From contig CAYGJQ010000015.1 in NCBI GenBank assembly GCA_964350285.1, forward strand, positions 1 through 28,291: a stretch of DNA of 28,291 nucleotides, read 5' to 3'. The position numbers and the translations under genes were made by a program. Positions within the stretch are counted from its first letter, which is position 1, and each line of letters opens with the position of its first letter. The notes below the pieces were generated by a model. That model worked only from the letters and a program-made list of their open reading frames with translations. It searched no databases and was not told where the DNA came from. Source of the DNA: an uncultured Candidatus Peribacteria bacterium. GTDB lineage: Bacteria; Patescibacteriota; Gracilibacteria; UBA1369; CAYGJQ01. Of this stretch, positions 3-4,367 are shown piece after piece.

Positions 3-407
3 ATTTTCGATCCCATCAGCCACGTCATCGCCAATATCCATTCCGGTTGGCGCGGGTCACTGGCAAATATTGCCGGCAAAACTGTTGCTACTATGGAAAG
101 AGAATTCGGCACCAATCCCGAGCATTGTATCGTCGGCGTTGGACCAAGTCTTGGGCCCTGTTGCGCAGCTTATCCGAATGAAGAAAGCCAATTCAAAGGC
201 GCCCTCAAAAAATTCTATCTCCCAAACAAACACGCTGATTTCTGGGAAATGACAAAGCACCAGCTCATAAAAGCTGGAGTGAAAGCAAAGAATATCGAAG
301 TAGCCACAGTCTGCACCGCCTGTCACACCGAGGAGTTTTTTTCCTATCGCGCCGCCAAATCCCAGCCAACCGGGCGTTTCGGCGTGGTGATCGGATTGAT
401 TGACTAA
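3..407 (+). CDS. pgeF: Purine nucleoside phosphorylase / polyphenol oxidase-like PgeF (YfiH/YlmD, DUF152), 5'-truncated by the window edge
   Basis: Frame is open from position 3 (IFDPISHVIANIHSGWRGS...). It contains the family motifs HxGWRG, VGVGPSLGPCC and CTAC...FFSYR...GR. Confidence 0.92.
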   Translation: MFDPISHVIANIHSGWRGSLANIAGKTVATMEREFGTNPEHCIVGVGPSLGPCCAAYPNEESQFKGALKKFYLPNKHADFWEMTKHQLIKAGVKAKNIEVATVCTACHTEEFFSYRAAKSQPTGRFGVVIGLID

Positions 408-408
408 C

Positions 409-436
409 TTGACTTTGCCTCTATTTCAAATACGAT
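409..436 (+). promoter_or_regulatory. sigma70 promoter of the orphan gene 545-1057
   Basis: TTGACT (409-414), 16-nt spacer, TACGAT (431-436). Confidence 0.65.
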
Positions 437-486
437 GAAGATCGCTCTGAATGGAGTGGTATCATTAACGATCAAGTCTAATCGTA

Positions 487-517
487 CCCGCTTTCAGAGA
501 TGTTCTTTGAAGGCGGG
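487..517 (+). promoter_or_regulatory. 14-bp leader hairpin whose 3' arm can alternatively pair with 1065-1075
   Basis: CCCGCTTTCAGAGA-TGT-TCTTTGAAGGCGGG is fully paired on the + strand using two G.U pairs. Confidence 0.75.
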
Positions 518-544
518 AAATTTCCCATGAGGAGGTAAAGCACC

Positions 545-1057
545 ATGGGATGGTTAAGTAATTTTTTCGGTTGGGGAAAGAAGGAAACAGAGGAGGAACC
601 CAATGTCCAAGAACGGGCAAAAAGGGGACAGCAACCCACTCGTGAGGCGATAGCACAAGCAGCTGAACCGGCGCGGCCAGTATCGAGAGTAGAAGAAACT
701 CTCGATCAAATACCAATGGATCAGCTTTCTGAAGTGAGCTCAGCCGCAGTGGACCTACCTATGCTCGACGATGCAAAGTTCGCTGCCATCGACGGGATTT
801 TCGAGGCTGAGGAGATTCCCCCGGAAGACCTAGAGGCCAGAAGGGCTGCGGCTGAAGAGCATCACCGGCAACGAGTAGGCAAAGACCAGATGGTCGCCGC
901 CCTCAAAGCCAAACAAGGCGGCGCCCTCAGCACAGTGCAAAAAGCCAGGCTCAAGCTTGGCATGCCACTTACCCCCCCCAAGTTCCAATACGACCCGGAT
1001 CAAGAGATCCCCGTATTCATTCGTTCCGACAGCAAATCCTCCAAAAAGGCAAAATAA
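545..1057 (+). CDS. Orphan 170-aa protein with an N-terminal amphipathic helix and a C-terminal FtsZ-tail-like peptide
   Basis: Open ORF with SD AGGAGGT 8 nt before ATG and its own promoter. N-terminus is MGWLSNFFGW; C-terminus is DQEIPVFIRSDSKSSKKAK. Confidence 0.8.
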   Translation: MGWLSNFFGWGKKETEEEPNVQERAKRGQQPTREAIAQAAEPARPVSRVEETLDQIPMDQLSEVSSAAVDLPMLDDAKFAAIDGIFEAEEIPPEDLEARRAAAEEHHRQRVGKDQMVAALKAKQGGALSTVQKARLKLGMPLTPPKFQYDPDQEIPVFIRSDSKSSKKAK

Positions 1058-1117: not shown

Positions 1118-1900
1118 ATGAATCTCACCATCATCGGCGGCGGCAACATGGGATCCGCCATCGCTCGCAGCCTCATCAAAAATTCCGACATCAATCTCAC
1201 TATCTCGGACCCGACAGTAGATAAACTAGCTGAATTCCAAACCCAAGGCGCCACCGTCACCAGCAACAACCAAGCAGCCACCTCCAGCGCCGACGCCATC
1301 ATCATCGCCATCAAGCCACAATACATCGACAGCCTTTTCGCCGAACTAAAAGACCAAATCCCCACCAACGCCCTGATCATTTCTATCGCCGCTGGCGTCA
1401 CCATCGAACGTTTCCAAACCGGTTTCAACCATCAACAAATCGTCCGCGTAATGCCCAACACTCCAGCTCAAATCAACCAAGGCGTATCTGGTTGGTTCGC
1501 CTCAGCCGAAGTTACTGAAGCCCAAAAAGCCCAGGTGAAAACCATCCTCCAATCTTTCGGCCAAGAAGTCGAAGTCGAAAATGAATCCCTAATCGACGCT
1601 GTAACTGCTGTATCTGGTTCTGGCCCAGCATACTTCTTCTATTTCCTCGAACACATCATCAAAGGCGGAGTCGCCTGCGGTCTCACCGAGTCCCAAGCCA
1701 AAGACCTCGCCATCCAAACCGCCATCGGCGCTGCTCACCTTGCTGAACAATCCGAAGACGATCTCGCTACTCTCCGCCAAAAAGTCACCTCCAAAGGCGG
1801 CACCACTGAAGCTGCCATCAATTCCATGGTGGAAAGCAATGTCGGCGAATCAATCTCCACCGCCATCCAAAAAGCCAACCAACGCGCCAAGGAATTATAA
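1118..1900 (+). CDS. proC: Pyrroline-5-carboxylate reductase
   Basis: IIGGGNMGSAI Rossmann motif, IIIAIKPQ, ISIAAGV, VRVMPNTP, TAVSGSGPAY and VTSKGGTT. Confidence 0.98.
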   Translation: MNLTIIGGGNMGSAIARSLIKNSDINLTISDPTVDKLAEFQTQGATVTSNNQAATSSADAIIIAIKPQYIDSLFAELKDQIPTNALIISIAAGVTIERFQTGFNHQQIVRVMPNTPAQINQGVSGWFASAEVTEAQKAQVKTILQSFGQEVEVENESLIDAVTAVSGSGPAYFFYFLEHIIKGGVACGLTESQAKDLAIQTAIGAAHLAEQSEDDLATLRQKVTSKGGTTEAAINSMVESNVGESISTAIQKANQRAKEL

Positions 1901-1952: not shown

Positions 1953-1978
1953 TGTGTCCGAGGACACATCATTTCTTT
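1952..1978 (+). terminator. Possible intrinsic terminator of proC
   Basis: ATGTGTC-CGAG-GACACAT stem followed by CATTTCTTT, which is a weak U tract. Confidence 0.45.
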
Positions 1979-3159
1979 CGTCGGCCACAGATCAGACAGA
2001 AGGCCTTTCCACTACTCGAGTACTCCATGTCCTGCGGCCGCTCTTTACATTGAGCCGGCTGGTGGAACTTCTCGTAGTCCGGGATCTCCTGCTTTTCCAC
2101 GGGAGGCACGAAGGCCTCGGTCTCGATGGTGTCGGGGTGCTGCTGCGGCTTTTCGGCTTGGCAGTTGCTGCAGACACACCACGCTCCCGATTTGCAGGCG
2201 TTGCAGGTGCAGGTTGTGGGGTGGGTTTTGAGACATCCCATCACGTGGCGGATCGGCACTTCAACATCGGCGGACTGGACGGGGGGCAAGACACTCTCCA
2301 TCCTCTGGCCATCGTTACCGGAGAAGAAGGGCTGGCTTTCCGCCGAAGCGGACGGGCTGCTCTCGACGTGGGCATTGCCGCCGTGGATCGAGATATTGGG
2401 AGCGACTGTGATCTCGAAGACCTTGCCTTGGAAGCTGTCCCTGTTTGCGGAGAGTTGCTCGAGAAAGGCTCCGAGTTTTTCCAGCGCCCCGGGCGTCCAT
2501 TTGGTGCCTTGGGAGCACTCGCAGTCTTGGGCCGGTGCCGCCAACTCTTTGCCTTGGTTGAGACCGTCTTTGAATCCGGCCAGTTCACCCTCAGCGCGAG
2601 CTGCCCGAACTTCACCTTGGAGGCGAGCGGTTTTGACTTCGGCTTGGTGGCGCTTCTCCCGTTCTTCTCCCTCTCTGATTTGAGCGACTTCGGCGTTGGC
2701 CTGGAGTTCTTCCTGGCGCAGCTTCAGTCGTCGAGACTTCAGCCACTTGCGGAAGGTCAAGAACGCTGCGATCAAACCCAGGAACAATGAGGCCCACCAT
2801 TTTTTATCAGCGAGCCAGTTGTTCCAGAACGAACGCATCGGTCGGATGACCGCTGTCAACGAAGCCATGAAGGTTCGCTTCGGTTCGGTGGCGGGTTGTC
2901 GCTTGAGACGCAGTCCATCGATCTTCGATCCCCAGATTCGCCCCACCACCATCACGGTGTAGGTTTGCCGCTCGATACGGGTGATCTGGATCCGGCGAGG
3001 AGCCACGGTCAGGCGCGTCGGCGCAACGGTGTACTGGGAGGAACGGTGGTGCGTACCACACCGGAGCGGGGACTGACTATCCCCAGCCTGAGCGCTGTTC
3101 GCACCCAGGGAAAAAGAGAGTAACAACAGGGCGATTGGGAAAAGTCGTGAAAATTTCAC
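1969..3159 (-). CDS. Orphan 396-aa membrane protein: signal peptide, one TM helix, coiled coil and Cys-rich C-terminus
   Basis: GTG start with AAGGAG 7 nt upstream. Signal MKFSRLFPIALLLLSFSLGANSAQA, TM WWASLFLGLIAAFLTF, and Cys clusters CTCNAC, CVCSNC and CLIC. Confidence 0.8.
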   Translation of the reverse strand: MKFSRLFPIALLLLSFSLGANSAQAGDSQSPLRCGTHHRSSQYTVAPTRLTVAPRRIQITRIERQTYTVMVVGRIWGSKIDGLRLKRQPATEPKRTFMASLTAVIRPMRSFWNNWLADKKWWASLFLGLIAAFLTFRKWLKSRRLKLRQEELQANAEVAQIREGEEREKRHQAEVKTARLQGEVRAARAEGELAGFKDGLNQGKELAAPAQDCECSQGTKWTPGALEKLGAFLEQLSANRDSFQGKVFEITVAPNISIHGGNAHVESSPSASAESQPFFSGNDGQRMESVLPPVQSADVEVPIRHVMGCLKTHPTTCTCNACKSGAWCVCSNCQAEKPQQHPDTIETEAFVPPVEKQEIPDYEKFHQPAQCKERPQDMEYSSSGKAFCLICGRRKK

Positions 3160-3193
3160 TGTAGACTCCTTTTCAGTTCATTTCTTTGTGTGT

Positions 3194-3237
3194 TTCGGAA
3201 TATTTAGTTTGTTTCCCCAGAGAACCAGGCTGTCCGC
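3194..3237. repeat. 5'-leader arm of the inverted repeat flanking 1969-3159
   Basis: Complementary on the - strand transcript to 1911-1952, with one bulged U and an A-rich internal loop. Confidence 0.85.
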
Positions 3238-3643: not shown

Positions 3644-3689
3644 GCATCTTGCCGAGTATAATAGTTCGGTCAACCTGCGTTCTCTGGGA
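3644..3689. repeat. 3'-trailer arm of the inverted repeat flanking 3863-4300 (partner 4324-4367)
   Basis: ACCT-GCGTTCTCTGGGA (3673-3689, +) aligns with ACCTCGCGTTCTCTGGGA (4341-4324, -). The match extends through CTTGC...GAGT, partly via G.U-compatible substitutions. Confidence 0.85.
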
Positions 3690-3862: not shown

Positions 3863-4300
3863 CTATGCAGCGATTTTGACGGGCGCGTTGATCACGTGGA
3901 CATTGGCGGGGAGCCCGTAGGTCTGGCGCAGCCGCGCGACCATCTCACCTTGGGTCATGCGAGGTGCCGGAGGCACCACCGAGAGCCGGGGGCGACGGGG
4001 GTGGGGGGCCAATGCAGGGGAGGTGGGGAACGGCGATTGCTCCACTACCTCCAGTGGCCACAACGGGGGCAGTGGGGAGTTTTCCAACTGGTGCACCACA
4101 CAGCCAAGGCCCTTGACGGGCACATTGAGTTGCGCCGATGCCTTCAGGCGACAGTGAAATCCTTTGACGCTGACTCCTTTGATGCGGCCCTTACAGACCT
4201 GTTGTGCCATCCATACCAACCCCTTCGCCTCACTTTCAGACAGATTTTGCTTCTTCTGGAGCACCACGATTGCGCTCATCATCTTGATCAAATTCTTCAT
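3863..4300 (-). CDS. Orphan 145-aa basic protein with a Pro-rich segment
   Basis: ATG with GAGGT 7 nt upstream, its own promoter and a ~200-nt structured leader. No recognisable domain. Confidence 0.7.
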   Translation of the reverse strand: MKNLIKMMSAIVVLQKKQNLSESEAKGLVWMAQQVCKGRIKGVSVKGFHCRLKASAQLNVPVKGLGCVVHQLENSPLPPLWPLEVVEQSPFPTSPALAPHPRRPRLSVVPPAPRMTQGEMVARLRQTYGLPANVHVINAPVKIAA

Positions 4301-4323
4301 TTCAGTAACCTCATAACGTTTTT

Positions 4324-4367
4324 TCCCAGAGAACGCGAGGTGTCCTAGTCACTCAGCAGCAAGCCGC
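4324..4367. repeat. 5'-leader arm of the inverted repeat flanking 3863-4300
   Basis: Complementary on the - strand transcript to 3644-3689. Confidence 0.85.

Follow-up and report, generated by a model that had tools for sequence, protein, structure and literature searches.

ORF170, an open reading frame (ORF) of 170 codons plus stop at positions 545–1057 (+), lies between pgeF and proC on a 28,291-nt contig of an uncultured Candidatus Peribacteria bacterium (GenBank assembly GCA_964350285.1, contig CAYGJQ010000015.1; this whole stretch is hereafter called the window). The C-terminus of its predicted product carries a match to the core of the FtsZ C-terminal peptide (CTP), and its N-terminus resembles the membrane-targeting tail of FtsA from the same genome. 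Our analysis indicates that ORF170 is very probably a real gene and that it is a strict orphan. With a probability that we put at roughly 40%, and judging from sequence, the product could be tethered to the membrane and compete there for the pocket in which FtsA, or an FtsA paralog, binds the FtsZ tail. An earlier reading of the same DNA (hereafter the original prediction) had proposed a membrane-anchored mimic of the FtsZ tail located at the usual position of sepF; its description of the N-terminus, the charged middle, the C-terminus and the pgeF and proC flanks was confirmed by translation of the ORF and by Pfam and NCBIfam matches. The layout that best fits a structure model of the product is that of an anchor joined by a flexible linker to a terminal peptide, distributed as follows.

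545–1057 (+): coding sequence of ORF170 (ORF list; codon score)
545–583 (+): residues 1–13, MGWLSNFFGWGKK, a predicted aromatic interfacial membrane anchor, then KK (Wimley-White sum; likeness to the FtsA tail of the same genome)
584–976 (+): residues 14–144, an acidic and largely disordered linker with many A, E, P and Q residues; helices are predicted at residues 94–123 and 130–138 (charge; AlphaFold2)
992–1024 (+): residues 150–160, DPDQEIPVFIR, the FtsZ-CTP-like motif (FtsZ tail of the same genome; consensus of the order; pattern match at 1004–1023)
1025–1054 (+): residues 161–170, SDSKSSKKAK, a short basic tail with a counted net charge of +3, placed like the C-terminal variable region of FtsZ

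The FtsZ-like C-terminus and the putative membrane anchor

FtsZ proteins of the order end in the tail E(N/S)E(L/Y)-DIPAFIR-(K/Q/R)KM in 26 of the 31 loci examined. These include the FtsZ of the source genome, whose C-terminal end is ...NELDIPAFIRKKME / ...SDNELDIPAFIRKKME, the tail with its core being DNELDIPAFIRKK. The product of ORF170 ends in ...FQYDPDQEIPVFIR, then SDSKSSKKAK, with DPDQEIPVFIR standing ahead of this basic tail. When D-P-D-Q-E-IPVFIR-S-D is compared with DIPAFIR of FtsZ, the two share I, P, F, I and R, E takes the place of D and V that of A, and this correspondence of EIPVFIR with DIPAFIR upholds the FtsZ-tail likeness noted in the original prediction. Five of the six positions of the core IP-x-FIR are identical between ORF170 and the FtsZ of its own genome, with acidic residues upstream and a basic tail downstream (net charge of residues 151–170, +2). 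Considered as a short linear motif, the segment conforms to the FtsZ-CTP core [DE]-[IV]-P-x-F-[LI]-[RK] and is located 10 residues from the end of the protein, after a disordered linker. The variant E-I-P-A-F-L-R is present in natural FtsZ tails of alphaproteobacteria. In FtsZ tails, A, T, S or P can stand at the x position, and contacts with FtsA, ZipA and SepF are made by I, P, F, L/I and D/E of the CTP.

Among the six-frame ORFs of at least 60 amino acid residues in the genome, IPxFIR occurs within 15 residues of the C-terminus only in FtsZ and in ORF170. The number of cases expected by chance per genome in the last 25 residues is 0.002 for the strict core [DE]IPxFIR and 0.025 for a relaxed core, and we consider the statistical support for the resemblance to the FtsZ tail to be moderate. 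The DNA pattern for [DE]IPxFIR was also run in 201 genomes of the same order; 20 non-FtsZ matches were fetched, and 36 further matches lie beyond those listed. Nearly all of the matches listed are FtsZ; each of the 20 fetched non-FtsZ matches either lies inside an enzyme or transporter or is out of frame or antisense. EIPAFIRPKM at locus L070 was considered as a second mimic and rejected, being antisense to a gene of 431 codons. Nothing in the DNA of ORF170 points to recent copying from the 3′ end of ftsZ, and the synonymous sites differ.

A separate observation concerns the FtsZ proteins of one family of the order (f8). In two of its loci (L038 in genome G007 and L058 in genome G038) the peptide PAFLRKKM is not at the C-terminus, and in a third (L063 in genome G025) it is not visible in the last 45 residues. 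All three proteins share a terminal ...(S/D)RPRF, which is reached by an extension of ~35 residues in L038 and L058. This is a second C-terminal FtsZ motif and was not seen in the other families examined.

At the opposite end of the protein, GWLSNFF of ORF170 parallels GWFKNLF of the FtsA membrane tail encoded in the same genome (C-terminal end ...MKKPIENMKGWFKNLFP, i.e. MKGWFKNLFP), with the common pattern W-phi-x-N-phi-F. The consensus of this tail in the order is K-x-W-[FVI]-[KR]-x-L-[LFV]-P. The Wimley-White interfacial sum of the ORF170 N-terminus (residues 2–11) is −5.9 kcal/mol (FtsA tail, −2.0). This value takes rank 5 among 1375 N-termini, and ORF170 is the only member of the top set without an ensuing transmembrane (TM) or signal stretch. 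A post-hoc filter (at least four F or W in residues 2–11, then a charged stretch) retained ORF170 alone among 1550 ORFs. Residues 14–110, which follow the putative anchor, are rich in A, E, P and Q and acidic, with a net charge of −13. The single-sequence AlphaFold2 model has no compact domain (predicted local distance difference test score of 65, predicted template modelling score of 0.21); besides the two helices of the linker, it tentatively pairs FQY and VFI as two strands.

The inventory of division proteins bears on the partners that such a peptide may have. The assembly comprises 1.87 Mb in 153 contigs, with a completeness of 90% and a GC content of 0.44. The genomes of the same order span 0.7–1.6 Mb, and a search of this 90%-complete assembly gave no ribosomal protein L30, which is consistent with a Patescibacteria/candidate phyla radiation-like lineage. 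SepF, MinC, ZipA (ZipA_C), EzrA and ZapD were likewise not found in this genome, and the FtsA-family proteins (FtsA and one paralog) are the only FtsZ-tail binders found among the known ones searched for. The paralog, P0002 (G000:C37, L005:1291-2538, −), has 416 residues and matches PF14450 with 67 bits and TIGR01174 with 111.8 bits, below the cut-off. It starts with MGLFSKK and ends in the amphipathic-looking ISKILKKVVRLMQI, and a peptide that resembles the FtsZ tail might bind it instead of FtsA. The ftsZ gene of the source genome (G000:C124, L001) contains an assembly gap (a run of N) that splits it into frames of 250 and 193 residues; ftsA, on the same contig, extends past the contig end, and a gene for an SLH-domain protein lies just downstream of ftsZ.

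A strict orphan between pgeF and proC

A codon-usage log-odds score trained on 630 long ORFs of the same genome gives ORF170 a value of 0.239 in frame and of at most 0.033 in the other five frames (training genes, 0.287 ± 0.094). Its GC content by codon position (0.66/0.42/0.53, GC1>GC3>GC2) follows a coding-type pattern, and the 170-codon frame occupies 513 of the 710 intergenic bases between pgeF and proC. Parts of the locus are covered by Logan contigs of four metagenome runs, namely biofloc, aquatic, animal gut and an unlabelled metagenome. Two of these runs are possibly the sample from which the window was assembled, and in them two overlapping contigs join pgeF to ORF170 and ORF170 to proC. 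In the aquatic strain, in which ORF170 is covered at 545–583 and 1018–1057, the sole difference from the window is a synonymous A>G at 1051, and the available strains are at least 99% identical across the covered parts. The coding signal confined to one frame supports the treatment of ORF170 as a protein in the original prediction.

Searches for relatives returned only ORF170 itself among 5.8 billion proteins (word-indexed search), in a full phmmer pass over 1.84 billion cluster representatives, among GTDB genome contigs and in six-frame searches of 60 genomes of the same order; none was found in phage and plasmid collections. The tail alone (residues 131–170) used as a query again returned only ORF170, and the genome contains neither a paralog of ORF170 nor a repeat of the 710-bp insert. 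The source genome is the sole species of its family in the genome collection. ORF170 matches no Pfam, NCBIfam or PHROGs family, a PDB sequence search gave nothing relevant, and the best library matches are low-complexity noise (ORC1, with an E value of 0.37, RimP and the PolII small subunit). In the ESM Atlas it belongs to no named cluster and its recognition value is low. Membership in the FtsZ family was rejected, as PF00091/PF12327 were not matched and the phmmer pass gave no FtsZ. MinE (PF03776) was rejected given that ORF170 has no Pfam match and the genome no MinC, and a C-terminal tip of the SSB type (D-D-D-I-P-F, with Phe as the last residue) was rejected because ORF170 has IPVF and not IPF, 10–13 residues from the end.

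The features of the locus outside the coding sequence are the following.

3–407 (+): 3′ part of pgeF (Cu-oxidase_4/YfiH family; PF02578, E value of 4.5e-35; TIGR00726), the upstream neighbour
409–436 (+): putative promoter-like site TTGACT-16-TACGAT, directly 3′ of the pgeF stop (9/12 matches in a consensus scan)
437–544 (+): structured leader of ORF170, with a 14-bp hairpin at ~487–517 and a second hairpin whose loop contains the Shine-Dalgarno (SD) sequence and whose stem contains the AUG
507–517 (+): left arm of a perfect 11-nt inverted repeat bracketing ORF170 (repeat search)
529–535 (+): SD sequence GAGGAGG, 9 nt ahead of the ATG, atypical for the genome
1065–1075 (+): right arm of the 11-nt inverted repeat (repeat search)
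1118–1900 (+): proC (pyrroline-5-carboxylate reductase; TIGR00112, 255.7 bits), the downstream neighbour; an extended −10 element of its own, TGTTATAAT, lies at ~1086–1094, 3′ of ORF170
529–535, 3160–3175, 4301–4320 and 27898–27915: SD-like sites of the window

The original prediction had relied on the usual position of sepF, a gene that lies next to pgeF in Firmicutes, Actinobacteria and Cyanobacteria. This argument fails for the lineage because SepF was found in none of the 41 genomes of the order that were searched and because pgeF and proC are directly adjacent in relatives. They abut or are no more than ~50 bp apart in five of the six relatives in which both genes were found, and in the sixth (L014, G033:C57) they are separated by a DUF1385-like gene (936–1898). 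Such a gene (...GGQA(I/L)(I/V)EGVMMR...) is located immediately upstream of proC in some relatives (L010–L012, L014), and its placement indicates that the pgeF-proC region is a recurrent insertion point in the order. Since pgeF and proC are otherwise adjacent or separated by the DUF1385-like gene, and since this gene is intact elsewhere in the source genome, ORF170 occupies a lineage-specific insertion of 710 bp. No similar ORF was found beside proC or pgeF in 26 relatives. The possibility that the 710-bp insert is a remnant of the DUF1385-like gene was rejected, as that gene is intact on contig C93 and unlike the insert.

The fold computed for the RNA of positions 437–575 has an energy of −48 kcal/mol (z score of −4.5), and none of 200 shuffled sequences was as stable. 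The chance of a perfect 11-nt inverted repeat in a stretch of 751 nt is estimated at ~0.07. Judging from these sequence features, the structured leader and the bracketing repeat could constitute a translational switch or allow pairing of the 5′ and 3′ ends.

Genome-wide, SD sites precede ~4% of 1375 crude gene calls, and their frequency rises from ~2% in genes with a GC content below 0.45 to 18–28% at a GC content of at least 0.50; signal-peptide or lipoprotein (lipobox) N-termini are encoded by many genes of this GC-rich group. The housekeeping genes of the window have AT-rich leaders without SD, and SD-like sequences together with a GC content of 0.54–0.60 are found for ORF170 and for the family-less ORFs 1969–3159, 3863–4300 and 27367–27897 (all −). 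This places ORF170 in an atypical accessory gene class marked by high GC content and SD sites. Membership in this class fits recent acquisition or fast evolution, and equally a young orphan without any role in division. Two of its members have a GC content of 0.59–0.60 and no Pfam or PHROG family, namely 1969–3159 (−; 396 residues) and 3863–4300 (−; 145 residues). The latter is bracketed by a 22-nt imperfect inverted repeat (3668–3689 / 4324–4345), and an element TTT(C/T)CCCAGAGAAC is common to 3212–3225 and 4321–4334.

Proposed mechanism and alternative explanations

We tentatively regard ORF170 as a real, lineage-restricted accessory gene whose product is predicted to be a mostly disordered peripheral protein of the inner membrane. 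In the mechanism that we infer, residues 2–11 (W3, L4, F7, F8 and W10, then KK) would insert into the cytoplasmic leaflet, and the acidic flexible linker of ~140 residues would present D-P-D-Q-E-I-P-V-F-I-R and the basic tail. Acting as a short-linear-motif copy of the FtsZ CTP, this C-terminal peptide would fill the FtsZ-tail pocket of FtsA or of its paralog. Because it would be concentrated on the same membrane surface as FtsZ filaments, ORF170 may in this way compete with them for the only membrane tether that was detected for FtsZ. The attachment of the Z ring would then be lowered or tuned, and ORF170 would be a conditional brake on division. Over-produced C-terminal fragments of FtsZ have been reported to block division through titration of FtsA and ZipA. 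As far as the original proposal of a membrane-tethered FtsZ-tail decoy is concerned, the real gene, the distinction from SepF, the FtsZ-like core, the FtsA-like N-terminus and the presence of an encoded FtsA all speak for it; the argument from the position of sepF had to be given up.

Several observations weigh against a competitor of FtsZ, and the loss of that positional argument is one of them. ORF170 was picked from a scan of ~250,000 windows, among which a chance case of such quality is expected. The estimate of chance also depends on the method. Scored with a 14-column matrix of the FtsZ tails of the order, its tail reaches only 9.9 bits (null of 2.7e-5 per window), a score attained by ~30 random six-frame windows of the genome, and ranks ~27th genome-wide and 6th among C-terminal windows, the others being mostly short junk ORFs. 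This low score over the full tail indicates that the resemblance resides in the core of 6–7 residues and not in the flanks, where P151, Q153, S161 and D162 are unlike FtsZ. No other C-terminal mimic was found among the matches listed in the 201 genomes of the same order, so no class of such proteins is visible, and homologs are lacking in every collection searched, so there is no evolutionary evidence of selection on the motif. The start of the protein had been called amphipathic, a generous wording for a segment that is strongly interfacial but that, in a SepF-type membrane-helix test on residues 2–11, has a modest helical hydrophobic moment of only 0.28–0.38, versus 0.45 for the FtsA tail of the same genome. 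AlphaFold2 predicts no helix at this N-terminus; segments that fold only on membranes commonly look unstructured in prediction, which is not positive evidence for ORF170. In light of these points, we consider a chance resemblance about equally likely as competition for FtsA. ORF170 would then be a real young or fast-evolving orphan, disordered and maybe membrane-bound with a target outside the divisome, that carries IPVFIR by accident. Such an origin agrees with its strict orphan status, with its unexceptional matrix score and with its compositional membership in a genome-wide class of GC-rich, SD-bearing accessory genes, whose products are for the most part secreted proteins or lipoproteins unlinked to division; the neighbouring orphans 1969–3159 and 3863–4300 are likewise without family. 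In the 201 genomes, ~0.2 strict-core C-terminal cases are expected according to our estimate, and one was seen among the matches listed. What speaks against an accident is the combination of an FtsZ core, an FtsA-tail-like anchor and a disordered linker, whose joint chance we roughly estimate at ~1e-6 to 2.5e-4 per genome, corresponding to 0.01 to ~2 chance cases across the scan. Moreover, an exposed peptide with all consensus contact residues is expected to have some affinity for FtsA whatever its origin.

The remaining explanations appear much less probable. ORF170 might not be a functional gene at all, but an open frame in an expanded intergenic region that is untranslated or translated without function. 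The lack of detectable homologs, the absence of a fold in the AlphaFold2 model, the low ESM Atlas value and the start codon buried in a stable leader hairpin could all be read in this way. This is improbable given a codon score within the range of genes in this frame only, a frame filling most of the intergenic bases, a sequence kept among strains of different samples, and a strong, correctly spaced SD sequence in a genome in which an SD of at least 6 bases precedes only 0.4% of long ORFs. More doubtful still is a natural anti-division effector, in which a membrane-seeking tail mimic made by a small-genome and possibly episymbiotic producer would jam FtsA, ZipA or SepF of a host or neighbouring bacterium. 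The small genome in which L30, Min and SepF were not found, the atypical set of accessory genes to which ORF170 belongs and a motif whose fit to the pan-bacterial consensus is no poorer than its fit to the lineage-specific flanks are compatible with such a role, yet the N-terminal anchor suits the inner leaflet of the producer itself and no secretion or toxin-immunity gene is adjacent. The suggestion that the decoy is aimed at a host cell found no support, as the protein has no signal peptide or recognisable secretion signal. Least credible of all is a SepF that has diverged strongly, or some other known FtsZ anchor (MinE-like or ZipA-like). The SepF-like N-terminal helix and the vicinity of pgeF, which sepF adjoins in several phyla, would favour it, but the doubt that the original prediction itself had raised about the SepF core was well founded. 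ORF170 has no match to PF04472 at E≤1 nor to any other family, the best PF04472 matches in the source genome reach 13.7 bits and are not at ORF170, nothing relevant came from the PDB, and the predicted structure consists of helices and disorder without the alpha/beta core of SepF, a protein found in 0 of 41 genomes of the order.

Comparison with known division systems

The FtsZ tail is a hub that engages nearly all membrane tethers and regulators of the Z ring. Small proteins such as MciZ, SulA, Kil and SidA, which are accessory or confined to particular lineages, act on the divisome under certain conditions, and the known small division inhibitors bind the FtsZ core or late divisome proteins. 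Our full-text literature searches found no description of a natural FtsZ-tail mimic or decoy, which is not proof of absence; to our knowledge, no earlier natural regulator works by mimicry of the FtsZ tail, and a version acting in its own cell would be the first. If competition by ORF170 is real, it would represent a new logic of divisome control, namely competitive short-motif mimicry on a membrane surface. It would also provide a compact, transferable tool of ~170 residues for probing the coupling of FtsA and FtsZ, as well as an entry point to cell division of small-genome uncultured lineages. If the match is due to chance, it calibrates the trust that can be placed in a motif of six residues within an orphan.

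Among the known systems, SepF (PF04472) has an N-terminal membrane-binding segment followed by a linker, as ORF170 is predicted to have, and ORF170 sits beside pgeF, the place of sepF in several phyla. The SepF core is nevertheless missing from ORF170, the lineage is devoid of SepF, and the roles are opposite, since the FtsZ tail is the ligand of SepF and ORF170 itself bears a look-alike of that tail. ZipA offers a similar arrangement of membrane anchor, charged or P/Q-rich flexible linker and C-terminal module of FtsZ-tail interaction. It differs in having a TM helix and a globular tail-binding domain, whereas ORF170 has a putative peripheral anchor and the peptide itself. Identity with ZipA was rejected, and ZipA_C was not found in the genome. 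The C-terminal membrane-targeting sequence of FtsA, and that of the engineered FtsZ-mts, is like the ORF170 segment a short aromatic and basic interfacial stretch; in ORF170 it is N-terminal instead, is not attached to an actin-like domain and has a lower hydrophobic moment. The closest parallel is FtsZ itself, with its linker, CTP and variable tail, which has in common with ORF170 a disordered linker, acidic residues, the [DE]-I-P-x-F-I-R core and a short basic terminal tail. ORF170 differs from FtsZ in lacking a GTPase domain and any detectable homology, in the residues that flank the core and in carrying a putative anchor that FtsZ lacks. If anything, it would function as a lone FtsZ tail attached to the surface of the membrane. 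Its layout mirrors that of FtsZ, with a predicted membrane anchor in place of the polymerising core.

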